64,000 nt of DNA, from sequence record PZ445551.1. The stretch is one strand, 5' to 3'. The stretch's first letter is position 1; the number at the start of each line of letters is the position of its first letter. The stretch is from a phage. Below the pieces are notes generated by a model. The model worked only from the letters and a program-made list of their open reading frames with translations, was not told the DNA's origin and did not search any database. Both the position numbers and the translations under genes were made by a program. Of this stretch, positions 9,440-25,693 are shown in pieces.

Positions 9440-9451
9440 AAGGGGTTTAAA

Positions 9452-12795: not shown

Positions 12796-12816
12796 TTCGT
12801 GTTTTTATAGGTGTGT

Positions 12817-12930
12817 TAATGAGAATCATTTTCGTTTGTAAATGAGAATCATTATCATTTAACTATGTAAGTGATAATCATTCTCAGTAAGAGAATGAGA
12901 ATCCTTAGCAAATGAGAATTTTCTCATTTA
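12817..12930. promoter_or_regulatory. cluster of five Fur-box-like palindromic sites
   Basis: AATGAGAATCATTATCATT, GTGATAATCATTCTC, AATGAGAATTTTCTCATT and related; near-matches to GATAATGATAATCATTATC. Confidence 0.45.
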
Positions 12931-13044
12931 GAGAATAACGCGCAGGGGTGGTGTTTGTCTCGCGCTCCCGTGTCCCCTCGCCATACAATAAGAATAGCAT
13001 AACCAACAACAAAAGCAAGCGATTATTTTTATCTTTACATTTCT

Positions 13045-13458
13045 TTACAAATTTATTTTAGACGAGCTACCGGCGATCAACCTTCCAACCAGTGCCCCCT
13101 GGTATGTTAGCCCCGCCTTTACGCCGTGGGGGTGGCGCTTCCTCTTCTGTATGTAAAACAGTATAAGCCCGATCCCTGGGCTTGTCAAGATTATTTTTTG
13201 TTTTCTTGCCAGGATAGGACACCTAACCAAAAATACATGTCGCCCCGCGCCCCCTGGTGGGATCTTGCTTTCCCCGCCGCCACTGCAAGCCCATAGATAA
13301 CCATTTGCGAACGTATCAAAATGATCTATTTCTTCCACCTTATGATCGCCCAGGTTGAGAACGGTTTCAACCTTTAAGCCCGTTGCGCTTGCTACCTGGT
13401 GCACCGTGCCGCCTTGCCAGCCTAATGAGTGCATGAGGTGTGAAGTAGTATTTGTCAT
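13045..13458 (-). CDS. hypothetical protein on opposite strand in GC-rich island (137 aa)
   Basis: Only long ORF in the island; minus-strand TTGCTA-N17-TATTAT promoter-like element upstream; could be a chance ORF. Confidence 0.4.
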   Translation of the reverse strand: MTNTTSHLMHSLGWQGGTVHQVASATGLKVETVLNLGDHKVEEIDHFDTFANGYLWACSGGGESKIPPGGAGRHVFLVRCPILARKQKIILTSPGIGLILFYIQKRKRHPHGVKAGLTYQGALVGRLIAGSSSKINL

Positions 13459-13725
13459 GGTATCGCCCTTTCTTTGATGTGTGCCCTGGTTGGCGCGGTA
13501 GAAAGATAATAGCCCTTTCCTTTATAGATAGCAAGCAAAAAAGAAATGAAAAAAAGATTAAAAAAGGGGTTGACGTTCCTCACCTGGTAGCGTATTATTC
13601 ATCTTGTCGAGGGGGGCGAGGCACAACGACAATAAACAAAAGGAGGGCGCAATGTAGGACGGGCAAAGGTGAGGATCTCCACAATCCACCGTCACAATAA
13701 CATTACTTATAAAAGGTTGATAACG

Positions 13726-13821
13726 ATGATCAAGAAAGAAAACAGCTTGACGGTTGGAACGATTAACGCTATCATTTTCGCCGTTCCATTTTGGGTTGTA
13801 GTAGCGGTTATTATCTTTTAA
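13726..13821 (+). CDS. small hydrophobic peptide (about 31 aa)
   Basis: Not in ORF track; downstream of TTGACG-N17-TATTAT promoter-like element; weak. Confidence 0.25.
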   Translation: MIKKENSLTVGTINAIIFAVPFWVVVAVIIF

Positions 13822-13829
13822 AAATATTC

Positions 13830-13887
13830 TTGACAACGTTTTTTAATCTGATAAGATGTATCACATAGGGCGGCAATAGTGCCGCTC
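13830..13887 (+). promoter_or_regulatory. promoter + 5' stem-loop cassette
   Basis: TTGACA, 16 nt, TAAGAT; hairpin GGGCGGCAATAGTGCCGCTC begins a few nt after -10. Confidence 0.6.
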
Positions 13888-13909
13888 ATAACAGAAGAGA
13901 GAAATAATC

Positions 13910-14182
13910 ATGGCATCATATAGCGCATCAATGATCGTAACGGGCATCACTGGTAAACCTATGCGCGGTGGCGGATCTTTCGCTAACATCAATATTGATG
14001 GGCGTTTATCCCTGGACGCAGCGATCACAGTGGCACGGGAAACGTTTAAAAAAGAATGTAATTTCAATAAACAAGATTATCTCGGTTTCGCTATTGAAAA
14101 AACCGCGCGCTTTGTTGATTATAAAAGCCCGAAAATGGTTGATACTACACTAAAAGCGCAAGATGTAGCATTTTTGCTTTAA
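13910..14182 (+). CDS. hypothetical protein (90 aa)
   Basis: ORF after promoter/stem-loop cassette and SD. Confidence 0.55.
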   Translation: MASYSASMIVTGITGKPMRGGGSFANINIDGRLSLDAAITVARETFKKECNFNKQDYLGFAIEKTARFVDYKSPKMVDTTLKAQDVAFLL

Positions 14183-14185
14183 GGC

Positions 14186-14245
14186 TTGACACTGAAAAAT
14201 AATTTGGTAATATATACTACATAGGGCGGGGAAATGGTTTCCCGC
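14186..14245 (+). promoter_or_regulatory. promoter + 5' stem-loop cassette
   Basis: TTGACA, 16 nt, TAATAT; hairpin GGCGGGGAAATGGTTTCCCGCC. Confidence 0.6.
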
Positions 14246-14268
14246 CAAATCAAAGAAAGGGTAACACA

Positions 14269-14631
14269 ATGAGCAAGCAAATCAATACTATCATGTTAAA
14301 CCTGGTATCTTTCCGCGATGACGTGAAAAATCTTTCGCGTGATGCAGTGGATGCACGGATCGAAAGCTATCGCTCACAGATCGCAACATTACCGCTAAAA
14401 CGTGATCAACATGCCGCTAATATGATGCTTAATGCTATGCTTAAAAAGATGATTCAATGTGATCTTACCCTGGCTTATGAATATGCTGGCGATCTCTTTG
14501 TAACATACAATAAGCCCGTTCCAGGTATGAGCACAACCGAAGAATTGCATGCCTTAAATCTGCGACAAGATGCATGGGATAATATGCGCCGCGTTATGGT
14601 ATGGGTAGAAAGCGGCAAAATTTACGCATAA
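14269..14631 (+). CDS. hypothetical protein (120 aa)
   Basis: ORF after promoter/stem-loop cassette. Confidence 0.55.
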   Translation: MSKQINTIMLNLVSFRDDVKNLSRDAVDARIESYRSQIATLPLKRDQHAANMMLNAMLKKMIQCDLTLAYEYAGDLFVTYNKPVPGMSTTEELHALNLRQDAWDNMRRVMVWVESGKIYA

Positions 14632-14635
14632 AGGC

Positions 14636-14689
14636 TTTACATTACACGAAAACCTGATAAGCTATCTTAAAGCGGGAATAGTTCCCGCT
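14636..14689 (+). promoter_or_regulatory. promoter-like element + 5' stem-loop
   Basis: TTTACA with weak -10; hairpin GCGGGAATAGTTCCCGC. Confidence 0.4.
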
Positions 14690-14707
14690 TTCATAGGATA
14701 AAACTTT

Positions 14708-14854
14708 ATGAAACAATATGTAATGAGTATTCACACCAAAAACGGCGCTACTGTTACGACTCCGGCACGGTTTGCACTTGTAAACCGTTGCAAGAGACTA
14801 AAACGAGAGTTAAAAAATAACCGTGCAACGGGCTTTAAACGCTGGGGAGGATAA
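14708..14854 (+). CDS. small basic protein (about 48 aa)
   Basis: Not in ORF track; ATG after stem-loop; approximate coordinates. Confidence 0.4.
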   Translation: MKQYVMSIHTKNGATVTTPARFALVNRCKRLKRELKNNRATGFKRWGG

Positions 14855-14856
14855 TC

Positions 14857-15117
14857 TTGTTTTTTCTAAAAGTTTTTGATAATGTGATCGCTTTTGAACA
14901 TGCTACAACGTTCGACCTAGCGAGATACGCTATCAGGTTTAAAGATAATGTTTATCCCCGTGCTGGAGGCGGTTACACTATTTTTAATCATCGTAACGCT
15001 CAATTAACGGATATAACTAATCCAGATCCTGGAGTGTATCGCATAGGCTGGCTACCGTCAAAAGACGCGGCAAGCATGTTTAAGGTGTGTAAACTACTAA
15101 CAGAAGAGGCAAATTAG
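14857..15117 (+). CDS. hypothetical protein (86 aa), probable TTG start
   Basis: SD GGGGAGGA 7 nt upstream of TTG; no in-frame ATG near start. Confidence 0.45.
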   Translation: MFFLKVFDNVIAFEHATTFDLARYAIRFKDNVYPRAGGGYTIFNHRNAQLTDITNPDPGVYRIGWLPSKDAASMFKVCKLLTEEAN

Positions 15118-15118
15118 C

Positions 15119-15664
15119 ATGGGGCGTGAGTATGTGATCCAGTCCTGGGTAAAGCATGACGCTAATGATCCGCGCATAATACCAGATGACATGATCGATC
15201 ACATGGTAGGGTATAGCGGGGAGCAGATAGGAAATCGAGCGGCAAAGAGCAACGGCAACACAAAGGCGCGATCCGTTCGCCCTGGTTGGCTGGCAAATGG
15301 TAACGCTGACATTGCAAGCGCCGCAGATCCAAGCGATGACGCTAAAAATAATCCCTTATACAGCATTGATCCGGCTTTTAAGGTGTTAGAAGAGTATCCC
15401 GCTAAATTAGCCGCACTAGATAAGGCATACGAAGAAAAGCGCATGGCATGGACGGTATACAACACCGCTAAAATGGTGCTAGATGCAAAATTGATTAAAG
15501 CCCAGGAGAAGATCAATAAACTTGTTGCAGTAGCGCAAGAGGAAGACCAGGAGGAAGAGGAAGAAATCATGCCTACCCTGGAAGAGGAAGAGATCCAGCC
15601 ATACATGCCGACGGAAGAGGAAAAAAGACAAGCCCTAAAAAATTATGAAAATTGCATTGTGTAA
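15119..15664 (+). CDS. hypothetical protein with highly acidic C-terminus (181 aa)
   Basis: C-terminal QEEDQEEEEEIMPTLEEEEIQPYMPTEEE tract. Confidence 0.55.
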   Translation: MGREYVIQSWVKHDANDPRIIPDDMIDHMVGYSGEQIGNRAAKSNGNTKARSVRPGWLANGNADIASAADPSDDAKNNPLYSIDPAFKVLEEYPAKLAALDKAYEEKRMAWTVYNTAKMVLDAKLIKAQEKINKLVAVAQEEDQEEEEEIMPTLEEEEIQPYMPTEEEKRQALKNYENCIV

Positions 15665-15667
15665 GGC

Positions 15668-15725
15668 TTGACATATGCAAACAAGCCCCGTAATATGTAC
15701 CACATAAAGCGGGGCAACGCCCCAT
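15668..15725 (+). promoter_or_regulatory. promoter + 5' stem-loop cassette
   Basis: TTGACA, 17 nt, TAATAT; hairpin GGGGCAACGCCCC. Confidence 0.55.
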
Positions 15726-15745
15726 AAGGTGAAATAAAAAATCAC

Positions 15746-15773
15746 TTGACACCTGAAATCAGTAAGCTATAAT
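15746..15773 (+). promoter_or_regulatory. second tandem sigma70-like promoter
   Basis: TTGACA, 16 nt, TATAAT directly upstream of small ORF at 15811. Confidence 0.5.
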
Positions 15774-15810
15774 GCTTATATAGATTGAAACATTACTAAG
15801 GAATAAAAGC

Positions 15811-15990
15811 ATGGCTATTATTGCAAAAACTGAGATCGTAGGTTTAGATTCTATCATCCTGGCATATGAGGAAGCTATAGAAATGTATGTAGTGACCTAT
15901 GGTGATTATGTGCGTGAATACGAATACATTGATCTTGCTTTCGAATGTTACATTCGCCAGGTCAATAAAGCCTATGATGATTATCGTTAA
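15811..15990 (+). CDS. small acidic protein (about 59 aa)
   Basis: Not in ORF track; ATG after SD AAGGAATAAAAGC. Confidence 0.4.
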   Translation: MAIIAKTEIVGLDSIILAYEEAIEMYVVTYGDYVREYEYIDLAFECYIRQVNKAYDDYR

Positions 15991-16085
15991 AAGTTTTAGT
16001 CTTGTGCTATTGACAACGAACGATAGTACAAGCATAATAACTTTTATCGGGAATACTCCTAACTAATCAAAAGAGATTAAAGACT

Positions 16086-16451
16086 ATGGCTAAAAATATC
16101 AATGTTTCTGCTTATGCTACCCTGGCTAACACTGCTAAAATTGAACTATCCAGCATTGAAGCGGTACATATTAGCGCCCGTCGCTGGTTTCAAAAGTCTT
16201 ATGGTAATACTTATTTCTCTTTGATGGTTGACGTTGAGATCGGCGGTAAACTGATTGAAGTCGTTAACGTTCCGTTTCACTATGGCTACGGGGATCATTT
16301 TGATACCGTTGCCCTAGAAGAGTTTAGCAAGGTTGTCAACCTGGAAGGTAAAGAGTTTTCAAATTATGCCTACCTTTCCCGTTTTTGCCGTGATAATGGG
16401 ATCGCTGTATACAGTCATGCAAGCGATGTTAAACGTAAAAAAGATTTATAA
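16086..16451 (+). CDS. hypothetical protein (121 aa)
   Basis: ORF with SD AAAGAGATTAAAGACT. Confidence 0.55.
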   Translation: MAKNINVSAYATLANTAKIELSSIEAVHISARRWFQKSYGNTYFSLMVDVEIGGKLIEVVNVPFHYGYGDHFDTVALEEFSKVVNLEGKEFSNYAYLSRFCRDNGIAVYSHASDVKRKKDL

Positions 16452-16457
16452 AAAGCA

Positions 16458-16516
16458 TTGACAGCACGAATAAAAAGCATATAATACTTATATCGAGAGC
16501 GGGAATAGTTCCCGCC
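16458..16516 (+). promoter_or_regulatory. promoter + 5' stem-loop cassette
   Basis: TTGACA, 16 nt, TATAAT; hairpin GCGGGAATAGTTCCCGC. Confidence 0.6.
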
Positions 16517-16540
16517 TCACTGAAAAAAGAGATTAACATC

Positions 16541-16780
16541 ATGGCTAAATCTAAAATGTTCTTAGGTCACAAAAACAAAACTCATTGGAATGTAAGCCTT
16601 TGGATCAACAACGATGAAGGTTTTTATAATCTTGCGCGTGAATTTATCGCAGCTAACACCAATAAGAATGACGCAGCGCGTGATATGATGTTATTTCTTG
16701 AAAGTATGGATCAAGATAAAACGCCAGACGGTTACAAGTTCAGTAAAACTGCGATCCGCGCCGCGATGGTTGGAATGTAA
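16541..16780 (+). CDS. hypothetical protein (79 aa)
   Basis: ORF after promoter/stem-loop cassette. Confidence 0.55.
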   Translation: MAKSKMFLGHKNKTHWNVSLWINNDEGFYNLAREFIAANTNKNDAARDMMLFLESMDQDKTPDGYKFSKTAIRAAMVGM

Positions 16781-16873
16781 AGGAGACATAAAAATGAAAC
16801 ATCGTTCGACCTATCTCACAAAACGTTTTAGCTTAGATCATAAATTGGGCTATTACGGAAGAAATAGAAAATA

Positions 16874-16934
16874 ATTTGACACTGTTTAAAATTCTGGTAT
16901 AGTTTATCACATAGGGCGGGAAATGGTTTCCCGC
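16874..16934 (+). promoter_or_regulatory. promoter + 5' stem-loop cassette
   Basis: TTGACA, 16 nt, TATAGT; hairpin GGCGGGAAATGGTTTCCCGCC. Confidence 0.6.
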
Positions 16935-16957
16935 CAAATGAAAGAAAGGTTATCATT

Positions 16958-17185
16958 ATGGCTATCGTTATTGTTCGCGTATCCGGCACGGTTGGAATCT
17001 CCCAGGTAGTAGCAGTTATCACCGAGAAGAAAGGGGATGATCTTCACTCTTCCTTGAATAGCTGGGCGGTCGCTAACTTCGGGCAATGGTCGAGCGTTGA
17101 GTACATCGAATCCTACCAGGTGCCAACGATTAGCCTAACCGATCTAAATGTTGATCGCTTGTTGTGCCTGGATCAATTAAACTAA
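16958..17185 (+). CDS. hypothetical protein (75 aa)
   Basis: ORF after promoter/stem-loop cassette. Confidence 0.55.
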   Translation: MAIVIVRVSGTVGISQVVAVITEKKGDDLHSSLNSWAVANFGQWSSVEYIESYQVPTISLTDLNVDRLLCLDQLN

Positions 17186-17192
17186 AAATAAT

Positions 17193-17251
17193 ATTGACAA
17201 GATAACTAAAATCAGTAAAATGTAATGCATAGGGCGGCAATAGTGCCGCTC
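17193..17251 (+). promoter_or_regulatory. promoter + 5' stem-loop cassette
   Basis: TTGACA, 16 nt, TAAAAT; hairpin GGGCGGCAATAGTGCCGCTC. Confidence 0.6.
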
Positions 17252-17272
17252 CTAGTGAGAGAGATTATCAAG

Positions 17273-17488
17273 ATGGCTAATATCCGCACACTGTTAAAAA
17301 ATGCAAGTCAAGTTTTATTTTCAGATGACGAGTATTTCAACAAAGACATTACAGGCGTGAAAAATTTAAAAGACGTGAAGGATGTTATCGGTATTCGTGG
17401 ATCTTTACGTAAAGGTGACATATACGGTAACAAGGTGCAATATAAACTGTCAAAAGATTATGATTTTACTTTGACATTTATTTCATAA
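17273..17488 (+). CDS. hypothetical protein (71 aa)
   Basis: Start refined to MANIRTLL downstream of stem-loop. Confidence 0.5.
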   Translation: MANIRTLLKNASQVLFSDDEYFNKDITGVKNLKDVKDVIGIRGSLRKGDIYGNKVQYKLSKDYDFTLTFIS

Positions 17489-17493
17489 AACCG

Positions 17494-17555
17494 CTTGCAA
17501 TACTACAAAAATAAAGTAAACTGTATTCATCAAGGCGGTGGAATAGCCCACCGCC
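17494..17555 (+). promoter_or_regulatory. promoter-like element + 5' stem-loop
   Basis: TTGCAA, 17 nt, TAAACT; hairpin GGCGGTGG..CCACCGCC. Confidence 0.45.
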
Positions 17556-17579
17556 TAACAAAGAGAAGAGGAAAACATC

Positions 17580-17750
17580 ATGATCACTTTTGCTACCCGT
17601 GAAGCCGCTCGCAACGTTGCACGTAAAGTTAACGCCGCCAACCTGGGCGCTACGCTTAAAGCCCCGGTAAAAGATGAATCAGGGAAATGGATCTTCCCTG
17701 GTCTGCGTCACGCTGATAAGCTGGGAACATTAACGTTAAAAAATAAATAA
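17580..17750 (+). CDS. small basic protein (about 56 aa)
   Basis: Not in ORF track; ATG after SD GAGAAGAGGAAAAC. Confidence 0.4.
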   Translation: MITFATREAARNVARKVNAANLGATLKAPVKDESGKWIFPGLRHADKLGTLTLKNK

Positions 17751-17756
17751 TATCCG

Positions 17757-17816
17757 CTTGACAGTAGCATGATTTATAAGTAAAGTAACAACAACGGCGG
17801 GAAATGGTTTCCCGCC
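17757..17816 (+). promoter_or_regulatory. promoter + 5' stem-loop cassette
   Basis: TTGACA with TAAAGT-like -10; hairpin GGCGGGAAATGGTTTCCCGCC. Confidence 0.55.
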
Positions 17817-17836
17817 ATCAATAAAGAGATAAGATT

Positions 17837-18196
17837 ATGAAATCAGTAAAAGCAATTAAAACTTACATTTTGTCGGCTATTTCTTTTGATGGTACTACAA
17901 CCGAAAAAGAAAAAATCACCGAACTGATGCGCCGTTTTAACTCTGAATACTGGTATCCCGATAATCAAAAACGTTACAATTATAACGTGATTAAGGCGAT
18001 AGCCTCATGGTTACAAGGTTTACCGTCAGAAATCAATATTGCTTTTGATTATAACGAGATCGATCACTTGTTAATTGAATGGAAGTACATAAAAGAAACA
18101 AGCAAAGAAACAACCGTTACCCGTGAGCGGGAAAATTATTGGTTATATATTGCAAGCATGATCGTAATCCTGGCAAAACAGCATAACGTGGCGTAA
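17837..18196 (+). CDS. hypothetical protein (119 aa)
   Basis: ORF after promoter/stem-loop cassette. Confidence 0.55.
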   Translation: MKSVKAIKTYILSAISFDGTTTEKEKITELMRRFNSEYWYPDNQKRYNYNVIKAIASWLQGLPSEINIAFDYNEIDHLLIEWKYIKETSKETTVTRERENYWLYIASMIVILAKQHNVA

Positions 18197-18211
18197 TTAA
18201 GAGGAAGAAAC

Positions 18212-18349
18212 ATGAACGCATCACAGCAGATCGAAAAATTCAACCGCAGCAAGGCGCGTAAAGATTGGAACGAAGAGATCACCAAAAAAGGCGACAAGCG
18301 GAACAAAACAAAGAGAGATCGCAGCACAAAAAGATACTGGAACGAATAA
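18212..18349 (+). CDS. small Lys/Arg-rich protein (about 45 aa)
   Basis: Not in ORF track; SD AAGAGGAAGAAAC; followed by terminator. Confidence 0.4.
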   Translation: MNASQQIEKFNRSKARKDWNEEITKKGDKRNKTKRDRSTKRYWNE

Positions 18350-18353
18350 CAAA

Positions 18354-18378
18354 AAGGGCGCAATAAGCGCCCTTTTAG
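18354..18378 (+). terminator. rho-independent terminator
   Basis: Hairpin GGGCGCAATAAGCGCCC followed by TTTTAGC. Confidence 0.6.
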
Positions 18379-18466
18379 CTTATATAGAGGCTTGTTACCC
18401 ATAGGCAATGGTAACGCCAGGATAAGCCTATAAACCACGTTAGACAGCTTTACAGGAGCTTTAAAA

Positions 18467-18649
18467 ATGAAATTAGACGAAATAAGCAAGGCACTAGCCC
18501 AGGGGCAAAGGTTATGCGCCCGATATCGTGATCAATATGGCTTCATAACTAGCGGCGTGATCCTGGGGATTGAAGGCAATAAGATTTTTATTGACACGTT
18601 GAAAAACGTTGTATATAGTGACAATATAATCTCAATAAAACATATATGA
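18467..18649 (+). CDS. hypothetical protein (60 aa)
   Basis: ORF with upstream SD ACAGGAGC. Confidence 0.5.
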   Translation: MKLDEISKALAQGQRLCARYRDQYGFITSGVILGIEGNKIFIDTLKNVVYSDNIISIKHI

Positions 18650-18657
18650 GGCAAGAA

Positions 18658-19059: not shown

Positions 19060-19106
19060 CAACATAGAAAGCACGTTATAAGATACACACAACAAAGGAG
19101 AACTAC

Positions 19107-19409
19107 ATGAACGGCATAGCTAAAACGTTTTTTCTTTTTTCTGGTGTAAATGATCCATCAATAAAAGTCGATAGTGTAAAAGAAAACAATACTATCACCG
19201 CTAAATTGTTTCAAGATGAAACAAATAACGTGCTAATCATTAATCTTAAAGAAGTAACTAAAGGTTATTATACTATTGCTTACCATGCGATTTATCATGC
19301 TGGTACTAGTGAGGAAGTGCAAACAAGCAACAACGAAAGCGCGGCGCTACCTGGTGATCTGGTGCTGGGCGTTATCAGTTTAATTGTCAATGATTTTTTT
19401 AAGGAGTAA
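19107..19409 (+). CDS. hypothetical protein (100 aa)
   Basis: ORF after TTGACA/TATAAG promoter-like element and SD AAAGGAGAA. Confidence 0.55.
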   Translation: MNGIAKTFFLFSGVNDPSIKVDSVKENNTITAKLFQDETNNVLIINLKEVTKGYYTIAYHAIYHAGTSEEVQTSNNESAALPGDLVLGVISLIVNDFFKE

Positions 19410-19413
19410 AACC

Positions 19414-19509
19414 ATGCCCTATTTACATTTATTTTTCGGTATCTTATTGACAGGATCTTTTTTCTTCTGTATGCTTGTTTCTATTGTAAACCACGTTTTA
19501 AGACATTAA
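19414..19509 (+). CDS. small hydrophobic peptide (about 31 aa)
   Basis: Not in ORF track; SD AAGGAG upstream; weak. Confidence 0.3.
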   Translation: MPYLHLFFGILLTGSFFFCMLVSIVNHVLRH

Positions 19510-19518
19510 GGAAACAGC

Positions 19519-19638
19519 ATGAAAATTATTCCCGTACAATATAGCGTAATAAATCCAGCATACGAGGAAGGAAGGAAAACAAGCATGGCTTTATGTTGTA
19601 TTGCTACTATAGCCATGTTGTTATATATTGTGTTTTAA
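19519..19638 (+). CDS. small hydrophobic peptide (about 39 aa)
   Basis: Not in ORF track; SD AAGGAAACAGC; weak. Confidence 0.3.
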   Translation: MKIIPVQYSVINPAYEEGRKTSMALCCIATIAMLLYIVF

Positions 19639-19738
19639 TAGGTTTTATAGTTGTACGCTTTAAGGGCTTGACAATTTTTTGTTATGCTTTAAACTATATC
19701 TTGAAAACGGCAAAGGCCGCAAACAAAAGGGTAAAATT

Positions 19739-20062
19739 ATGAAATCTGTGATCGGTGTTTATTTGGATAACTCTGATTTTTTCTATCATCGCGCTCGTTT
19801 CCTTGATGCGATTGAAATGATAGAATCAGGCTTTAAAGAGTATCGCCTTGCACATGATGACCTGGAAGCATTACAGGGCAATAGTGTTTTTACATTGCAA
19901 GCTAAAGCACTATGCAAAAGCCGGATCGACATTGCGAGCAAAAAGATAGAACGCGGCATGTCCTGGTTGCGCACCGCAGAAATCAACATGGGGCAATGGT
20001 ACGGCGAAAACTTAGAAAATAAACATACTTTTGTCAATGTAGAAAATATTGAAGATTATTGA
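19739..20062 (+). CDS. hypothetical protein (107 aa)
   Basis: Start refined to MKSVIGVY downstream of TTGACA promoter-like element. Confidence 0.5.
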   Translation: MKSVIGVYLDNSDFFYHRARFLDAIEMIESGFKEYRLAHDDLEALQGNSVFTLQAKALCKSRIDIASKKIERGMSWLRTAEINMGQWYGENLENKHTFVNVENIEDY

Positions 20063-20124
20063 TTGACAGCACACCTAACGGGTAGTATATTGTATCTCAT
20101 AGAGCGGGGAAATGGTTTCCCCGC
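20063..20124 (+). promoter_or_regulatory. promoter + 5' stem-loop cassette
   Basis: TTGACA with TAGTAT-like -10; hairpin GCGGGGAAATGGTTTCCCCGC. Confidence 0.55.
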
Positions 20125-20144
20125 CTTAAAAGAAGAGATAAGCT

Positions 20145-20429
20145 ATGAAGATCACAAAAGCACTTTCCAACTATGCAGCACGTCGCGGATTATGTTTAAC
20201 CGTTGAAAATTTAGGGAAAGAAGATTTTTTGTGCTTTTGGGAGCTTGAGAATGATAATGAGTGGATCTTCTCTTATTCTATCTGCGAAGATCAAAACGGT
20301 TGTTTATTAACCTGGCGCGGTAATATCTATTTACCGGAAGAAATCAAAGAAGAATTACCAGGCACGATCATGACTGAGAAACAGCTTAAGGAAGTGATCA
20401 ATTTTGTAGGGCAAAACATTAAAAAATAA
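20145..20429 (+). CDS. hypothetical protein (94 aa)
   Basis: ORF after promoter/stem-loop cassette. Confidence 0.55.
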   Translation: MKITKALSNYAARRGLCLTVENLGKEDFLCFWELENDNEWIFSYSICEDQNGCLLTWRGNIYLPEEIKEELPGTIMTEKQLKEVINFVGQNIKK

Positions 20430-20430
20430 T

Positions 20431-20488
20431 TTGACACTAGGCAAACAACGTAGTAAAGTTTATCACATAGGGCGGCAATAGTGCCGCT
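20431..20488 (+). promoter_or_regulatory. promoter + 5' stem-loop cassette
   Basis: TTGACA with TAAAGT-like -10; hairpin GGGCGGCAATAGTGCCGCTC. Confidence 0.55.
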
Positions 20489-20510
20489 CATAACAGAAGA
20501 GAAACAAATC

Positions 20511-20681
20511 ATGATCCCGACTATGTTTTATGTATCGCGCAAAGGTCACAATATTTTTTGGTCTGAAGATTTAAATGAAGCTATGACGTTTGCCCGTGAT
20601 CGTGTCGCTATCGGTGGCGTTAACATCACTGTAACCGATGAAAACGGCATTGAATACTATAACGGCGACGATGAAGAGTAA
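20511..20681 (+). CDS. hypothetical protein (56 aa)
   Basis: Start refined to MIPTMFYV downstream of stem-loop. Confidence 0.5.
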   Translation: MIPTMFYVSRKGHNIFWSEDLNEAMTFARDRVAIGGVNITVTDENGIEYYNGDDEE

Positions 20682-20725
20682 TCAACAAGGCGGGATTAAT
20701 CCCGCCTGTATTAAAGGGTAATATA

Positions 20726-20863
20726 ATGAAAACTTTCAACGCAACAGCCTCGACAATTGGTTATATTATTACAGTGCAAGCCGTTGACCTGGTAGCGGCA
20801 GCAAACAAGATTAAAAAGATGATCCCAACAGGCAGCGAATTTTCCGTTTGGGAAGTAAAATAA
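20726..20863 (+). CDS. small protein (about 45 aa)
   Basis: Not in ORF track; preceded by palindrome GGCGGGATTAATCCCGCC and SD-like AAGGGTAA. Confidence 0.4.
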   Translation: MKTFNATASTIGYIITVQAVDLVAAANKIKKMIPTGSEFSVWEVK

Positions 20864-20865
20864 AT

Positions 20866-20924
20866 CTTGACAATAGTTTATTACTTGATAGAATGTATTT
20901 CGTAGGGCGGCAATAGTGCCGCTC
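20866..20924 (+). promoter_or_regulatory. promoter + 5' stem-loop cassette
   Basis: TTGACA, 16 nt, TAGAAT; hairpin GGGCGGCAATAGTGCCGCTC. Confidence 0.6.
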
Positions 20925-20945
20925 ACAACTAAAAGAGAAATCATC

Positions 20946-21140
20946 ATGGCGCTTAAAAAATTAACAAGCAATACTCGTTGGGATGAAATCGACGGGGAAG
21001 TATACATTTTCGCCCGTAAACCAGGTGATCAAAAATGGTCAAAGGCTTTTACTTGCCACCCTGCAACAATAGATCTAATAAAAAGTAAAGGTTTACGTGA
21101 AGCAGTAGCGAGAAGTTTACTGATCCCTTATAAAAAATAG
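20946..21140 (+). CDS. hypothetical protein (64 aa)
   Basis: Start refined to MALKKLTS downstream of stem-loop. Confidence 0.5.
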   Translation: MALKKLTSNTRWDEIDGEVYIFARKPGDQKWSKAFTCHPATIDLIKSKGLREAVARSLLIPYKK

Positions 21141-21141
21141 T

Positions 21142-21203
21142 TTGACAATATGCTGTTATCTGGTAAAGTGTACGACATAGGGCGGGGCAATAAGGCAACG
21201 CCC
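21142..21203 (+). promoter_or_regulatory. promoter + variant 5' stem-loop
   Basis: TTGACA with TAAAGT-like -10; GC-rich imperfect hairpin GGGCGGGGCAATAAGGCAACGCCC. Confidence 0.45.
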
Positions 21204-21221
21204 ATTAATGAGGGTAGAATC

Positions 21222-21326
21222 ATGTTAGAGAAAATTTTCACGGTTGTAGTAGTTGGCCTGGCGTTATCGGTTGGATTGGTTGCAACTATGGCTAACATGA
21301 TCCTATCTTCCCACGGTATTGGATAA
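21222..21326 (+). CDS. small hydrophobic peptide (about 34 aa)
   Basis: Not in ORF track; single predicted TM helix. Confidence 0.35.
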   Translation: MLEKIFTVVVVGLALSVGLVATMANMILSSHGIG

Positions 21327-21336
21327 GGTGAATCAA

Positions 21337-21552
21337 ATGATCACGAATAAGACAGGTAAAACAGAATTTTTACGCGGCTTGCAAATAGGTAAACCTGAGA
21401 TCTGGCATTGCACTAAATCCGCGCATAATGAAATGAAAGATTTTACCGCTACTTTACAACGTGTTAAAATATCTATCACGCAGAAAAAAGCCTTGTTAGT
21501 AGTAGAAAACGAGATACCGCAAACCATTATTATTGTCGAGCGTACAGCATGA
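21337..21552 (+). CDS. hypothetical protein (71 aa)
   Basis: Start refined to MITNKTGK. Confidence 0.5.
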   Translation: MITNKTGKTEFLRGLQIGKPEIWHCTKSAHNEMKDFTATLQRVKISITQKKALLVVENEIPQTIIIVERTA

Positions 21553-21935
21553 AAACTGAAATCATTATTGAAATCATCAACGGTTATAAAGAAGCCTTTA
21601 TTTTTGCTGAATCAGCCAGGGATCATGAAGGCTATTTTATTGATAACTTAGACGATTATGATTTTTCAGATCAAGCCCATCAGCGGATCATTCATGACGT
21701 AGCGGCTTATTGTGATGCCAATGATGCTGCTATCTCTGAGGCAATGAGCGACGGCGCTACAGCAAACCAGATCGGGAATGATTTACATTTTACCCGTAAC
21801 GGTCACGGCGTAGGCTTTTGGGATCGCCCTGAAATATACACTACTAACACCGCCAACCGCCTAACAAATGCAGCTAAATTAATGCCATCGGTGCATGCTT
21901 ACATTGGTGAAGATAATTTGATTTATATTGAATAA
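21549..21935 (+). CDS. hypothetical protein (128 aa)
   Basis: ATGA overlap with upstream gene. Confidence 0.55.
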   Translation: MKTEIIIEIINGYKEAFIFAESARDHEGYFIDNLDDYDFSDQAHQRIIHDVAAYCDANDAAISEAMSDGATANQIGNDLHFTRNGHGVGFWDRPEIYTTNTANRLTNAAKLMPSVHAYIGEDNLIYIE

Positions 21936-21941
21936 AAAGTA

Positions 21942-22000
21942 TTGACACCGATCCCCCATATGGTATTATTTACCACGTAGGCGGGAAATGGTTTCCCGCC
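21942..22000 (+). promoter_or_regulatory. promoter + 5' stem-loop cassette
   Basis: TTGACA with TATTAT-like -10; hairpin GGCGGGAAATGGTTTCCCGCC. Confidence 0.55.
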
Positions 22001-22023
22001 AGGTAATCAAAAAGGTAAATACT

Positions 22024-22413
22024 ATGCGCAACCTGGTTTCTGTTTCTAACGTTGAAAAATTTCAATCCTTGCAGGGTATCGTTAACAACGTAGCGCCTTT
22101 TTTAGTCAATGGCTTGATTGCAAAGATGAAAAATAAACATCATGCGGCATGGTCTGCTTACTGCTTTGATAATGATGAAAAAGCGGCTGAAATGATGTTA
22201 GATATGCTGTTAAATAGTGTAGAAACATCTTTACCGGAAAACATCGCAGAAGAGATCACCTATCGTTATAATATGGCGATCACTTACCAGGAGGTTGCGC
22301 AATTTAATATGATGGATGATGACGAACAACAGGATCAGGAAATGTTTTGGGAGTATGCAGATCGTCAATCGGCTTTTGATGAAAAGTTAGCGATGTATTA
22401 TAACGAATATTAA
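22024..22413 (+). CDS. hypothetical protein (129 aa)
   Basis: Start refined to MRNLVSVS downstream of stem-loop. Confidence 0.55.
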   Translation: MRNLVSVSNVEKFQSLQGIVNNVAPFLVNGLIAKMKNKHHAAWSAYCFDNDEKAAEMMLDMLLNSVETSLPENIAEEITYRYNMAITYQEVAQFNMMDDDEQQDQEMFWEYADRQSAFDEKLAMYYNEY

Positions 22414-22426
22414 TACACGGTAAAAG

Positions 22427-22455
22427 AAAGGGGCGCACTAAGCGCCCTTTTTTGT
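22427..22455 (+). terminator. rho-independent terminator
   Basis: Hairpin AGGGGCGCACTAAGCGCCCT followed by TTTTTTG. Confidence 0.65.
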
Positions 22456-22799
22456 ATTCTTTTTTCACGATGGAAGTAACACGTAAAGAATAAACGTAAA
22501 AGGTGGTGTAAAACAGCCTAAAACCGATTATAACCGCTTAAACAAGGTAGTAATGACTAATCACCTTGCCAGGATGAAAAAGCTGTTATAAAGCTATTTA
22601 GAGCGTTTAAAGCACATAGGAAATAATTTGCTTTTTATCTTGCCTTTTATCCTGCTTTTGATTATTATTATGGAACGGGCGGCACCTGGGGACAGGGGAA
22701 GGTAATCACCGGAAGATCCCGCTATATATTGATAGCTAATATCTATTAAACAACAAAACATCAAAGGAATAAACTATCAAATCTTTACAATTCTACCTA

Positions 22800-22859
22800 T
22801 TGACACAGGATCACCCTTATAATAAGATGTATCCAGTAGGGCGGGAAATGGTTTCCCGC
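22800..22859 (+). promoter_or_regulatory. promoter + 5' stem-loop cassette
   Basis: TTGACA, 17 nt, TAAGAT; hairpin GGGCGGGAAATGGTTTCCCGC. Confidence 0.6.
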
Positions 22860-22878
22860 TTGATATAGGAATCATACC

Positions 22879-23112
22879 ATGATCGAACAAATTAAAAGCA
22901 CTACACCAAATGTTAACGGCAATGTTTCACACTTTATCGGGGATAATGAAAGGGGTACACCATACGCCGCCGTAACCGTGCAACCTAATGGCGATTATTG
23001 GTTTACCGTGTACGGATCATATTCTTTCGGACGCCCGGCACATGATAAGATCTTGCAAGCGGTTAAGCCTACTGGGAAGAATATCACAGCAGAAAAATTT
23101 TATAAAAAATAG
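22879..23112 (+). CDS. hypothetical protein (77 aa)
   Basis: ORF after promoter/stem-loop cassette. Confidence 0.55.
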   Translation: MIEQIKSTTPNVNGNVSHFIGDNERGTPYAAVTVQPNGDYWFTVYGSYSFGRPAHDKILQAVKPTGKNITAEKFYKK

Positions 23113-23113
23113 C

Positions 23114-23142
23114 TTGCTTTATAGTCTCTGTTAATTTATAGT
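23114..23142 (+). promoter_or_regulatory. sigma70-like promoter without stem-loop
   Basis: TTGCTT, 17 nt, TATAGT. Confidence 0.45.
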
Positions 23143-23187
23143 TATCGTGTAGGGCAAACAATTTTAAACGGTAAACGAGGAATCACC

Positions 23188-23571
23188 ATGAGCAATATCA
23201 GCAACCTGGCGGCTACTGTAAACGGTAAAGATTTTAACGGCGCTGTAGATCGTGATCCTATGTGGTGCTTATCAGTGTTTAAAGGCGATCTGGTTGAAGT
23301 TAGAACAACCGAAGGGTATAGCGATGATTATAAATGCGAGATCCATTTACACAACTGGTACACGGGTAAAACTTATGCGCTGAATCATGCGTTTATCGGC
23401 AAGGTTGAATATAGAGAAATGATCGACGAAGAAACGGGGCAAGATTTTAGCGAGCATGTTTATATTCGTTCCGAGACATTAGCCGAACGTTTGATCGAGA
23501 AAATGAAAGCAAAAAATAAAATTAATTTATCTCATTGGATTGATATAACAAACGATCCAGCTTATCAGTAA
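23188..23571 (+). CDS. hypothetical protein (127 aa)
   Basis: ORF with SD AACGAGGAATCACC. Confidence 0.55.
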   Translation: MSNISNLAATVNGKDFNGAVDRDPMWCLSVFKGDLVEVRTTEGYSDDYKCEIHLHNWYTGKTYALNHAFIGKVEYREMIDEETGQDFSEHVYIRSETLAERLIEKMKAKNKINLSHWIDITNDPAYQ

Positions 23572-23585
23572 ATAACATTTCATAC

Positions 23586-23615
23586 CAGGGCGCACAAAGC
23601 GCCCTTTCTTTTTAC
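23586..23615 (+). terminator. rho-independent terminator
   Basis: Hairpin GGGCGCACAAAGCGCCC followed by TTTCTTTTT. Confidence 0.6.
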
Positions 23616-23817
23616 CTAAATAAAGATGATAGCTTTTACCTATCAAAAACGTTCACCGAAAAAAGTGAATAGATCGCGGTATCGAGCTAATCAAGGAGCA
23701 GATGAACAACCATACCATGAAGATCATAAGGCGCTTACAACGTGTTTTAGACCGCTTATTTTTAATTTCTCAATGTAACTATCTGGCAAAAACAGCCTTT
23801 TTCTTGTCTTTCCTCTT

Positions 23818-23895
23818 AAATGATAATCATTCTTATTTATAGCTGATTATTTATGCAATAAACTGAATAATGCAATAATGATAATCATTCTTAAC
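23818..23895. promoter_or_regulatory. two Fur-box-like sites
   Basis: AAATGATAATCATTCTTA and AATAATGATAATCATTCTTAAC. Confidence 0.45.
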
Positions 23896-24260
23896 TTATG
23901 ACCATCTAACCTATAAAATAATAAGTTATCTAACTAAATTAAAACTAATTATCTCACCTTTATTTATAACTTACTGTTACTATCTCATTGATAACCTTAT
24001 ATTAAACAACAATAACCAATATAAATCATTACTAAGCTAAATATAATCTATCTAACCTTTAAAACTATAACTATAATCTATCGAATTGTTGCACAAAGTA
24101 ACTATTAAATTGTTAGTAACATTACTAAATAATTAATATCCTATCTATTTATGATCTAATCTTTATCTTCCTATCTATTACCTAAATAATCATTTCATAC
24201 AGTAATCATTTCATACAATAATTATAACAAGAAATATAATTCGCAAGCGTATCATTAGCA

Positions 24261-24430
24261 GCCTATGCCGGACACATAGGCGGCTAATAATAACGCAACT
24301 ACACACCCCACATAATAACCATCACCGATAGTTATTATTTGTGCTTATGTAGCTTGCAACAATTGCAAGCGCAACAATATACATGGTATATTGTATCCCT
24401 TACATTGTTGCGGTGCGTTATTATTAGCTA
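24261..24430. repeat. nested palindromes flanked by perfect 15-bp inverted repeat
   Basis: GCTAATAATAACGCA ... TGCGTTATTATTAGC enclosing GCTTGCAACAATTGCAAGC and CAATATACATGGTATATTG; also GCCTATG..CATAGGC. Confidence 0.6.
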
Positions 24431-24757
24431 ATGTTTAGAACATTGGCTATAATATAAGCTAAGTAATAAGCTATGCAATAATAAACATGGTGAATAATGA
24501 CATTGATGATCATAATGCGCCACCTTCCAGGGGGCGCTATGTGAACACAAAGAAATCTTTCTTGTCAAGAAAAAATATTGCCATTATTGCGCAAAATTAT
24601 TTATATCTGAATAGATGATTTTTCATACTATTGCCCCATATAACATACCTCATTTGTTGAGCATAGTTATAGCCTATTTGTTGAGCCTACTTTCTTAAAA
24701 GCGCAATAAATCAGAATTATCTTGATTTTTAGTCTGTTTTATAGTATAGAAAGTATG

Positions 24758-24778
24758 CAAATGATAATCATTATCAGC
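24758..24778. promoter_or_regulatory. Fur-box-like site (best match)
   Basis: CAAATGATAATCATTATCAGC, about 17 of 19 matches to GATAATGATAATCATTATC. Confidence 0.45.
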
Positions 24779-24940
24779 TATCTTCCACGGGTAGCACTAT
24801 TTCACGCCAGATCATTTCATTTGGCAAGGTGTATATAGATGTTTAGACTTGCCAAGCCATTGATTTACTTAGAATTTATCTGTTTTGTTGTGAGTAGAGC
24901 CTTTCTTGCTCAGAAAATAATCAAAAGTCTTATAAGTCAT

Positions 24941-24977
24941 TGAATGATAATGCAAATGATAATTATTCTCATTGATA
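24941..24977. promoter_or_regulatory. Fur-box-like palindromic site
   Basis: TGAATGATAATGCAAATGATAATTATTCTCATTGATA. Confidence 0.4.
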
Positions 24978-25090
24978 TTTGAGGGGGACGGTCGGCAGAA
25001 ATCGGGGGGCGCTGAAAATCGCGTTAAGCACCTCTCGCAAGCGAGCAGTATTTTGCGGCAAGTTATTGATATTATTGGCTTTACGCTTAT

Positions 25091-25692: not shown

Positions 25693-25693
25693 A

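Follow-up and report, generated by a model that had tools for sequence, protein, structure and literature searches.

Fur-like box arrays in the two large non-coding regions of Escherichia phage VivaForever and their possible role at the borders of the early-gene block

The genome of Escherichia phage VivaForever, a virulent phi92-like myovirus of E. coli, carries about ten near-perfect Fur-like sites spread over its two large non-coding regions, and by sequence these sites are not distinguishable from high-affinity E. coli Fur operators. We infer that host Fe2+-Fur binds them and thereby forms a cis roadblock or an architectural complex flanking the early-gene block; that such a complex does form there, on selectively maintained sites, has in our judgement about an even chance of being right. 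The window analysed is a stretch of 64,000 nucleotides (PZ445551.1) from a genome of 146 kb. The boxes within the terminal repeat, the distance of the other cluster from the right end (7.8% of the genome) and the recurrence of the box in T5, RaK2 and at least 82 groups of viral contigs are new, and no earlier description of these phage Fur-box arrays was found.

Two clusters and their place in the genome

Both box-bearing regions have a GC content of 31%, and they enclose a block of tiny early genes, about 11.5 kb long, adjacent to the right genome end: cluster 1 forms the inner border of this block and cluster 2 holds the physical termini. In phi92 coordinates, cluster 1 is separated from the right end by 11.55-11.62 kb (7.8% of the genome). 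This genomic context goes beyond the first-pass annotation of the sequence, with two boxes lying within the terminal repeat and the other cluster at the edge of the early-gene block.

The boxes are of the 7-1-7 / 19-bp Fur type; mismatches are counted here against the 19-bp Fur consensus GATAATGATAATCATTATC, and bits refer to a weight matrix built from E. coli K-12 Fur operators only. Five Fur-box-like sites had been annotated at 12817-12930, and they are present as placed (12815-12929). Box 1a (GTTAATGAGAATCATTTTC, 12815-12833) has 3 mismatches and 17.5 bits, box 1b (GTAAATGAGAATCATTATC, 12838-12856; same sequence in muut, Paula and phi92) 3 mismatches and 21.6 bits, box 1c (GTAAGTGATAATCATTCTC, 12867-12885; kept in relatives) 4 mismatches and 18.9 bits, and box 1d (GAGAATGAGAATCCTTAGC, 12891-12909) 4 mismatches and 13.5 bits, the last being degraded in VivaForever, where relatives read ...AATCATTAGC with 3 mismatches. 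Box 1e (AAATGAGAATTTTCTCATTT, 12910-12929) is a perfect inverted repeat with its centre one base short. Its counterpart in the alignment is the deeply conserved promoter-proximal box TTGAATGA(T/G)AATCATTCTCATTTGC, of which VivaForever has lost 1 bp at the centre, and since this is the most conserved box of the family, at least that copy is dispensable or degenerate here. Three direct repeats of about 67-75 bp (family D1, 12577-12797) lie immediately left of cluster 1; KB57 and phiTE have repeats of a different sequence (GGGTCTCGATCG-type) at the analogous position.

For cluster 2, the annotated number of at least five sites at 23818-24977 is reached only if the overlapping registers at 24946-24976 are counted singly. 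Box 2a (TTAAATGATAATCATTCTT, 23816-23834; 5 mismatches, 15.8 bits) has a perfect 13-mer core, 12 of whose 13 columns are invariant across two genera, and box 2b (AATAATGATAATCATTCTT, 23874-23892; 3 mismatches, 18.6 bits) is conserved in part in Phapecoctavirus. A weak degenerate pair at 24493-24517 (AATAATGACATTGATGATCATAATG; two registers, both with 5 mismatches) is the first instance of a 37-nt unit consisting of a box and then GGGG (direct-repeat family D2), and a box with GGGG about 22 bp downstream occurs four times, around the terminal-repeat boundaries and in cluster 1. The best site, annotated at 24758, was confirmed as box 2c (GCAAATGATAATCATTATC, 24757-24775; 2 mismatches, 23.5 bits; 11 of 13 core columns invariant). 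The composite site 2d (GATAATGCAAATGATAATTATTCTCATTGAT, 24946-24976) has three overlapping registers with 5, 4 and 5 mismatches (18.6 and 17.5 bits) and is conserved across two genera, the phiWec190 version having only 2 mismatches.

Boxes 2c and 2d lie inside the segment 24684-25026, which by alignment to phi92 is the equivalent of its 343-bp direct terminal repeat (DTR), the sequence that marks the physical ends of the genome in this phage group. The phi92 record gives identical sequences for DTR-L (1-343) and DTR-R (148270-148612), phi92 1-565 is 97.7% identical to window positions 24684-25246, and several independent assemblies end at about 24640-24684 or about 25026. The 19-mers start at repeat positions 74 and 269 of 343, each 74 bp in from one boundary; the phi92 counterpart of box 2c occupies DTR positions 74-92, about 74 bp from the DNA end, and that of site 2d lies at DTR position 269, near the inner boundary. 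A weak promoter-like element read from the alignment (TTGATT-17-TATAGA, 24722-24750, plus strand) would leave box 2c centred at about +12, a classical-operator geometry. Its TCTTGATTT and spacer length are conserved in two genera; its -10 hexamer is without the final T, and the element was not picked up by a 9-of-12 promoter scan.

Statistics, likeness to host operators and conservation

Shuffling bears out the claim that the density of sites exceeds chance even in AT-rich DNA. The window contains five sites with at most 3 mismatches, where dinucleotide shuffles give an expectation of 0.10 and never more than 2, and the 13-mer core AATGAKAATCATT is matched 13 times with at most one mismatch against 0.5 expected, always within the two clusters. 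When the AT-rich intergenic DNA alone was shuffled, sites of at least 10 bits numbered seven against 0.31 expected in region 1 (maximum 4) and eight against 0.71 in region 2 (maximum 3). Across the whole 146-kb genome, every site with at most 3 mismatches and every site of at least 16 bits falls in the two clusters. Weight-matrix scoring against a shuffled background, a check that the first-pass annotation had proposed, thus puts the phage sites above the shuffled controls, so that the scores give no reason to dismiss them. The phage sites lie closer to the Fur consensus than most host operators do, with 2-4 mismatches (5 in box 2a and some registers) against 3-6 at the best sites of the K-12 ryhB, entS, entC, fiu, fhuA, cirA and fepA promoters, and the host-only matrix gives them 15.8-23.5 bits (box 1d 13.5) against 16.3-20.0 for its own training sites.

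The boxes stand out as conserved islands amid diverged flanks, and one box has a fixed position in all phi92-like and rV5-like phages examined. When 13 genomes from two subfamilies were aligned with MAFFT, the distance between the proximal box (1e position) and the anchor GTTAGCCCCGCCTTT was 186-194 bp in ukendt and the rV5-like genera. The columns of this box have a mean identity of 0.94, those of its two flanks 0.62 and 0.75. Of the box cores, 76% is invariant compared with 38% for the rest of non-coding region 2 (Fisher p = 1e-8). In PVP-SE1, boxes are likewise present in the second large non-coding gap, and region 1 of PVP-SE1 and KB57 retains only one or two strong boxes. The boxes are, on this evidence, phylogenetic footprints and probably maintained by selection.

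Promoters, hairpin and gp224 beside cluster 1

Two conserved sigma-70-like promoters on the minus strand aim at cluster 1, an arrangement that would support a roadblock. The proximal one (TTGCTT-16-TATTCT, 12991-13018) has conserved hexamers and spacer length with a variable spacer sequence, reads TTGCAA-17-TATATT in KB57, CR3 and phiTE, and points leftward to the boxes; its predicted start is the nearest one, and the proximal box is centred about 63 nt downstream of it, which is not the geometry of classical Fur repression. The distal one (TTGACA-17-TATACT, 13160-13188; 11 of 12 consensus matches) keeps its hexamers in all genera and has a GC hairpin within the spacer that was scored terminator-like too. 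No VivaForever box overlaps a sigma-70 promoter with at least 9 of 12 consensus matches. Between the proximal box and the proximal promoter lies a conserved GC-rich hairpin-forming segment (12938-12982, core GGTGTTTGTCTC), whose outer stem ATAGCGGG/CCCGCTAT was read directly from the CR3 and phiTE sequences. A highly conserved GC-rich non-coding element (13032-13157, minus strand) separates the two promoters; it shows 72-85% identity in Klebsiella, Cronobacter, Salmonella and Pectobacterium phages, a mean column identity of 88% and one covarying pair, is without a match in Rfam and is a candidate RNA or DNA signal. A terminator scan revealed no convincing intrinsic terminator between the two promoters and the convergent genes to the left.

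The homologue of phi92 gp224 (88 aa, 13191-13458, minus strand), identified from translations, is frameshifted in VivaForever, where the frame runs on to 13045. It is common to phi92-like phages and phiTE, 260-540 bp from cluster 1; its motif LGWQGGTVHQVAxxTGL looks helix-turn-helix-like by eye, and a Pfam search gave no significant domain, DNA-binding domains included. A tblastn search returned homologues in only 152 phage records, with no T5-like or RaK2-like phage among them by genus name or in the matches listed. KB57 and PVP-SE1 are without it and have a DUF7170 gene in its place.

Recurrence of the box and competing explanations

The same box occurs in unrelated phages. In the T5 injection-stop region it corresponds to palindromes E, G and I and direct repeat C; the T5 array spans 9468-9640 of 121,752 bp (7.8-7.9%), where the shear point of first-step transfer has been mapped, and as in the phi92-like phages it forms the inner border of an early-gene block by the genome end. 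The T5-like phage SP01 has at least 8 boxes, and RaK2 also carries the box. In IMG/VR, at least 120 contigs with the box form at least 82 unrelated context clusters, ranging in GC content from 21% to 53%; the box lies outside long ORFs in 108 of 119 contigs and is clustered in 38, while two scrambled palindromes of equal composition match only 4 and 3 contigs, making them about 30-fold rarer. Other viral contigs have an identical box at +11 to +16 of consensus promoters, which suggests that phages do use it as a classical operator. Such recurrence argues for a host factor with a widely conserved site rather than a lineage-specific phage protein, and this spread would favour host Fur above a lineage-specific phage repressor.

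It is rather unlikely that the arrays are instead structural signals at genome ends, with Fur as an accessory or without Fur. They might help terminase cutting or end duplication by defining the terminal repeat, comparable to IHF at lambda cos, which would suit the two boxes in the repeat and the box-plus-GGGG units around its boundaries, or they might mark a pause or stop in transfer that delimits the first-entering domain, comparable to the T5 injection stop signal, which would suit the shared location of the arrays, near 7.8% and bordering early genes at a genome end. However, two-step injection and the identity of the first-entering end would be carried over from T5 by analogy, the agreement at about 8% could be coincidence, and the T5 region has 8 DnaA boxes whereas neither VivaForever box region has any. 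Furthermore, the box is not confined to genome ends, since many IMG/VR boxes lie at ordinary promoter positions. Somewhat less probable is a sponge acting in trans, in which about 10-13 high-affinity boxes per genome, in hundreds of copies after replication, would titrate the cell's Fur and derepress its regulon (iron uptake, RyhB, NrdEF), feeding iron-dependent phage enzymes or remodelling host metabolism. The FURTA assay is based on the derepression of Fur-regulated reporters by multicopy Fur boxes in E. coli, and since a cell holds roughly 5,000-10,000 Fur molecules, about 10 sites on each of 100-300 genomes would be within effective range. VivaForever also encodes aerobic and anaerobic iron-dependent ribonucleotide reductases, and it has what a Fur competitor needs, many non-coding sites equal to or better than host operators. 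A sponge, however, does not require base-pair-exact placement with respect to promoters, hairpin and terminal repeat across subfamilies, and PVP-SE1 and KB57 are left with hardly any strong boxes in region 1. T5, with the same arrays, degrades host DNA early according to a preprint (bioRxiv 10.64898/2026.04.02.716235), so that host derepression would be pointless there. The suggestion that Fur titration derepresses an iron-regulated receptor is physically plausible, but nothing in this analysis supports it and it fits poorly with this early host-DNA destruction in T5.

A phage repressor of similar specificity, which the first-pass annotation had offered as an alternative, is a little less probable again. 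The helix-turn-helix-like gp224 homologue is a small conserved minus-strand ORF near cluster 1, and 19-bp palindromes arrayed at a spacing of 23-29 bp are reminiscent of phage operators or iterons. This reading is disfavoured because the box occurs in at least 82 unrelated contig clusters of widely differing GC content, no Fur homologue or Fur-family gene was found among the phage's own genes, and gp224, the only syntenic candidate, is missing from many box-bearing phages, KB57 and PVP-SE1 among them, has no T5-like or RaK2-like phage among its matches by genus name or in those listed, and has no significant Pfam DNA-binding domain. That the boxes are a functionless by-product of AT-rich non-coding DNA crowded with other repeats has next to no probability, since the observed counts are never attained when this intergenic DNA is shuffled locally by dinucleotides, the boxes are islands of conservation and scrambled palindromes are far rarer in viral contigs; shuffle, conservation and scrambled-palindrome controls effectively refute a chance origin.

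Recruitment of host Fur, also proposed earlier, accords with host-operator-like, non-random and conserved sites, but its corollary, coupling of phage expression to iron by simple promoter occlusion, is not supported, since no box lies on a credible sigma-70 promoter. For a Fur-bound roadblock it must be considered that, to our knowledge, such repression by Fur is not a well-documented mode, that a different protein could recognise these AT-rich palindromes, the helix-turn-helix-like gp224 homologue being syntenic, and that the terminal-repeat boxes could serve packaging or end-processing rather than transcription. If the roadblock reading holds, holo-Fur, abundant in the cell, would cover the arrays upon DNA entry, and the resulting nucleoprotein block would act in cis, halting or gating host RNA polymerase that leaves the early block along the leftward unit of gp224, conserved element, hairpin and boxes. 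Fur would also sit on the weak promoter within the terminal repeat, and the early-domain borders and genome ends would thereby respond to the iron/Fur state of the host. More broadly, the recurrence of the box suggests that phages commonly recruit host Fur.

Fur-like boxes in the two non-coding regions

The first-pass annotation had described clusters of palindromes resembling the box of Fur, the host iron-sensing repressor, in the two largest non-coding regions, and counting bears this out. Five sites in the window lie within three mismatches of GATAATGATAATCATTATC, the 19-bp Fur consensus with its 7-1-7 inverted repeat TGATAAT-N-ATTATCA, where 0.10 are expected, all of them in the clusters, and every one of the 13 matches to the core AATGAKAATCATT with at most one mismatch (0.5 expected) falls there as well. 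Cluster 1 occupies 12815-12929 in region 1, its fifth site (12910-12929) being termed the proximal box here, and cluster 2 in region 2 comprises boxes 2a (23816-23834), 2b (23874-23892) and 2c (24757-24775) together with the composite 2d (24946-24976). In the full VivaForever genome of 146,096 bp, which was put together from the window and two fetched pieces, all sites with at most three mismatches are likewise located within the two clusters.

Seven classical K-12 Fur promoter regions (fepA-fes, fepD-entS, fepB-entC, fhuA, cirA, ryhB and fiu) served as the host reference set. Their best sites carry 3-6 mismatches and the phage sites 2-4, several of the latter having a perfect 13-mer core. A weight matrix derived from the best consensus matches at these seven host promoters only, with no phage sites in its training, assigns the phage sites 15.8-23.5 bits compared with 16.3-20.0 bits for the training sites, and all sites of the phage genome reaching at least 16 bits are confined to the two clusters. 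Sites of at least 10 bits number 7 and 8, and dinucleotide shuffling of just the AT-rich intergenic regions yields 0.31 and 0.71. This was the check proposed in the first-pass annotation, and the phage sites stand far above the shuffled controls.

Like the E. coli operators of iucA, ryhB, entS-fepD, entC-fepB, fhuA, cirA and fiu, the phage boxes carry the inverted repeat TGA(T/G)AAT-N-ATT(A/C)TCA within the 19-bp consensus, often in adjacent or overlapping copies, and score as high as the host sites; their core AATGAGAATCATT is also that of the classical aerobactin operator. Host Fur operators overlap the -35, the -10 or the start of the repressed gene, whereas no credible sigma-70 promoter overlaps any of the phage boxes, which argues against plain occlusion and led to the rejection of the classical operator-at-promoter model. 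A search of both strands for promoters with at least 9 of 12 matches that would place any of the boxes between -50 and +80 yielded none if marginal hits are disregarded that consist of the box sequence itself, and box 2c is accompanied by no more than a weak promoter-like element (TTGATT-17-TATAGA). Furthermore, unlike host operators, the phage boxes have no iron-related gene downstream and lie in the non-coding DNA of a virulent phage, partly in its terminal repeat.

A reading of the boxes as RNA hairpins or terminators was discarded on inspection, since no U-runs follow them and their A-U stems are weak. At four places (24497-24533, 24755-24791, 24950-24986 and 12910-12946) a Fur-like box is followed about 22 bp later by GGGG, a composite unit suggestive of a second recognition element beside the box.

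Genome ends, order of elements and conservation

The window is the reverse complement of positions 48201-112200 of Escherichia phage VivaForever PP925843.1 (100% identity), whose nearest relatives are the phi92-like phages of the genus Justusliebigvirus in the Stephanstirmvirinae; a tRNA scan of the window found none. These coliphages share 93-97% identity with several 'Campylobacter phage' records (MG0656xx) and with the 'Acinetobacter phage' ABPW7, whose host labels are probably wrong.

In the phi92 record, identical 343-bp direct terminal repeats are annotated at both ends, and window positions 24684-25246 align with phi92 1-565 at 97.7% identity. The equivalent of the terminal repeat is therefore placed at about 24684-25026, so that in this phage group the physical ends of the genome fall inside region 2. 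Box 2c lies within the terminal repeat, 74 bp from the DNA end, the composite 2d lies within it as well and starts 74 bp from the opposite boundary, and boxes 2a and 2b are found about 0.8 kb ahead of it. Cluster 1 is 11.55-11.62 kb away from the right end of phi92, corresponding to 7.8% of the genome. The DNA between cluster 1 and the genome end holds about 45 tiny genes, all transcribed toward the end and equipped with their own sigma-70 promoters and terminators, and this block has the look of an immediate-early host-takeover block. Several public assemblies are broken at about 24640-24684 or about 25026.

Region 1, read from right to left in the order taken from alignments, starts with divergent early promoters at its right-hand end (about 13506-13598), followed by a small minus-strand gene (13045-13458) homologous to phi92 gp224, which has 88 aa in phi92. 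In VivaForever the gene is frameshifted after about residue 69, resulting in a 137-aa ORF that reaches into a conserved non-coding element; the frameshift is either a sequencing error or real. Then come a conserved sigma-70-like promoter (TTGACA-17-TATACT; 13188-13160, minus), a GC-rich, almost invariant element some 110-125 nt in length (13032-13157, minus), a second conserved promoter, TTGCAA-17-TATATT in most genera (13018-12991, minus), a GC hairpin, the box array, and three copies of a direct repeat about 67-75 bp long (TTATTTAAAGTTTTT ... TTTGAAAATGAAAAGTTCAA; 12577-12797) that adjoin the array on its left, with the 3' end of convergent rightward genes as the left border. Both conserved minus-strand promoters are directed at the boxes, and the nearer of their predicted starts precedes the centre of the proximal box by about 63 nt. 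At the place of the 12577-12797 repeats, KB57 and phiTE have repeats of similar size and unrelated sequence (GGGTCTCGATCG-type). These repeats resemble iterons co-evolving with a lineage-specific protein.

The GC-rich element is more conserved than the surrounding genes, with 88% mean column identity across Stephanstirmvirinae and Vequintavirinae. RNAalifold predicts a three-stem fold of 16 pairs, only one of which covaries (G-C in 7 sequences, A-U in 6) because the element is nearly invariant in sequence. Conceivably it is a small RNA, an element in the 3' UTR of gp224 or a signal at the DNA level. An Rfam scan of 12000-26000 revealed no RNA family near the boxes or for this element; its sole match there was a sub-threshold RT-17 RNA at 15713-15811 on the plus strand (E = 0.1; 27.4 bits, with the gathering score at 40.4). 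A link of the boxes to the pseudo-ToxI locus of phiTE is ruled out by the position of that locus, which is found elsewhere in the phiTE genome, at 106.7 kb.

Phapecoctavirus (ukendt, ZCKP1, phiWec190) has both non-coding regions in synteny, and there the boxes form conserved islands between diverged flanks: across six related genomes, 76% of the columns in the box cores are invariant versus 38% in the rest of region 2 (Fisher p = 1e-8). The GC-rich stretch to the right of cluster 1 is 72-85% identical in rV5-like phages of Klebsiella, Cronobacter, Salmonella and Pectobacterium, and with a 15-mer from it as anchor about 20 homologous loci were gathered. Every rV5-like genus has a box TTGAATGA(T/G)AATCATTCTCATTTGC at a distance of 186-194 bp from this anchor. 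The proximal box thus aligned reaches a mean column identity of 0.94, as opposed to 0.62 and 0.75 in its flanks; in VivaForever the proximal box has lost one central base. In addition, Fur-like boxes are present in a second non-coding gap of PVP-SE1, which is 2.2 kb long and lies at a distance of 8-10 kb, and the two-region layout is therefore regarded as ancestral to both subfamilies.

Region 2 has further features. The stretch 23900-24250 is a G-poor, A/T/C-rich tract of about 350 bp with repeated (C/T)TATCTAAC motifs, and its Phapecoctavirus counterpart is equally G-poor and CA-rich with a different sequence; composition is kept and sequence is not, so this may be a Rho-utilisation-like or unstructured RNA region. 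At 24283-24428 a perfect 15-nt inverted repeat (GCTAATAATAACGCA / TGCGTTATTATTAGC, arms 116 nt apart) encloses a promoter-like TTGCAA-18-TATATT with upstream TG as well as the palindrome GCTTGCAAcAATTGCAAGC, which is conserved in Phapecoctavirus.

The same box in unrelated phages and in T5

At least 120 IMG/VR contigs, with GC contents from 21% to 53%, contain the exact 19-mer AATGAKAATSATTMTCATT, compared with 4 and 3 contigs for two scrambled palindromes of identical composition. Among the matches listed, 119 loci fall into 82 unrelated context clusters; 11 of these boxes lie in open frames of at least 100 codons, and 38 have further boxes within 300 bp. Six loci (L110, L122, L106, L109, L212 and L213) place perfect Fur-type boxes at +11 to +16, by their centres, of consensus sigma-70 promoters such as TTGACA-17-TATAAT, the classical repression geometry; in these unrelated viral contigs they look like strong Fur-repressible phage promoters. 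Isolates with the exact 19-mer include the jumbo phage RaK2 and the T5-like Salmonella phage SP01, which has at least eight boxes in a regular array with the spacer TTTAAAAAGCGG in its terminal repeat.

In T5 itself (AY587007.1), units of the form TAAATGAGAATCATT(A/C)TCATTT make up palindromes E, G and I as well as direct repeat C at 9468-9640. The stretch belongs to the injection stop signal (iss) region, where the first-step-transfer shear point also falls; it borders the pre-early genes on their inner side, and its distance from the left end is 7.8-7.9%. Fur is mentioned neither in Davison's comparative study of the iss region nor elsewhere in the T5 literature searched. Region 1 has the layout of a T5-type iss, namely a large untranslated region rich in repeats and palindromes (about 1.6 kb non-coding, three repeats of about 70 bp, 5 palindromes) at the inner border of early DNA and about 8% from the end, and it shares with T5 the direct repeats, the palindromes and the box itself. 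The T5 array differs from the one described here in lying inside a 10-kb terminal repeat and in being accompanied by 8 DnaA boxes. A DnaA-box set of this kind is absent from both regions of VivaForever, as none of the 11 TTWTNCACA matches of the window, a total equal to chance expectation, falls in either of them. Two-step transfer has been demonstrated for T5 and BF23 only.

Candidate binder, possible function and significance

Judging from the sites themselves, Fur probably binds the phage boxes. Host Fur is the parsimonious candidate because the match equals that of the best host operators and because the motif recurs in unrelated phages that share only a Fur-bearing host; of the other E. 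coli regulators considered, namely Zur, ArgR, IHF, Fis and DnaA, none is known to fit the motif. The first-pass annotation had offered a phage repressor of Fur-like specificity as the alternative, and this fares poorly: the distribution of the cognate gene does not match that of the boxes, and the phage is without a Fur-family gene. A tblastn search of the whole VivaForever genome with E. coli Fur returned chance hits only (E above 2), and a phage-encoded Fur was rejected on this ground. As to the gp224 homologue, it was rejected as the box binder because it is distributed differently from the boxes and lacks any significant Pfam match to a DNA-binding domain. Homologues were found in 152 phage records, among which there was no T5-like or RaK2-like phage, by genus name or among the matches listed, though such phages carry boxes, and KB57 and PVP-SE1 have the boxes but a different gene at the syntenic position of gp224. 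That a phage-encoded protein recognises the boxes is considered quite improbable, and chance as their origin is practically excluded by the shuffled and scrambled controls.

What the boxes do is the weak step of the argument. That they keep a fixed position with respect to promoters, hairpin and terminal repeat speaks for a function in cis. In the model preferred here, Fur would form a roadblock or an architectural complex at both borders of the early block beside the genome end, the complex at cluster 1 stopping leftward transcription by host polymerase and another occupying the terminal repeat. A role in terminus formation or DNA entry, for which the T5 parallel speaks, is possible and rather unlikely. 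Here IHF at lambda cosB is a precedent for a host architectural protein at a phage packaging site, and host-protein-type sites lie within tens of bp of terminus-defining sequences in both cases; however, protein and terminus type differ, cluster 1 is about 12 kb from the ends, and no link between Fur and packaging is known. Somewhat less likely still is that the boxes act as a sponge titrating Fur. In the FURTA assay multicopy Fur boxes derepress the Fur regulon, and with many high-affinity copies on a replicating episome the phage resembles it, so that titration is physically plausible given this assay and Fur copy numbers. No natural element is known to use Fur titration by multicopy boxes, and FURTA is a laboratory cloning artefact, whereas the positional conservation in VivaForever argues for a cis role and is poorly explained by a sponge. 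T5 fits a sponge poorly as well, given that it destroys host DNA early (bioRxiv 10.64898/2026.04.02.716235).

A more far-reaching reading has a low probability. Fur-box arrays might be a general, independently evolved device of large virulent phages of enterobacteria and beyond, whereby Fur, already abundant in the cell, binds incoming DNA and defines a first-entering early domain of about 8% of the genome; the palindromes of the T5 iss, by now 50 years old, would then be Fur sites, cluster 1 the equivalent checkpoint of phi92- and rV5-like myoviruses, and entry or the early-to-middle switch would be gated by the iron/Fur state.

Fur boxes as a type of element are already known, being part of every textbook account of bacterial iron regulation, and what is new is the way they are deployed here. 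On phages they are known only as operators of cargo genes in lysogens, one example being the Fur site at the stx1 promoter on a temperate phage. In the searched literature the only phage-borne Fur boxes were the sitABCD operator on temperate lambdoid coliphages (PMC6969025), and no description of Fur sites or Fur-binding data was found for phi92-like, rV5-like or T5-like virulent phages, nor a transcriptome for the VivaForever group. VivaForever resembles the sitABCD and stx1 cases in carrying Fur-type sites on phage DNA. Those are single operators at iron-related or toxin cargo promoters acting in a lysogen, whereas the arrays of about 10 sites described here belong to a strictly virulent phage, serve no cargo gene and are conserved across two subfamilies.

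With the boxes, a further class of host-factor sites would come to light, kept by strictly virulent phages of unrelated families in their non-coding DNA and terminal repeats. The boxes also bear on a long-standing puzzle in T5, namely which factor recognises the repeats of its injection stop signal. Should they bind Fur but serve as a sponge only, nature would have its own version of the titration assay used in the laboratory. If Fur does bind them, iron status would feed directly into the infection programme of coliphages that are common and include groups employed in phage therapy; this would be relevant in an infected host that is short of iron, and phenotypes would be expected in fur mutants and upon chelation.
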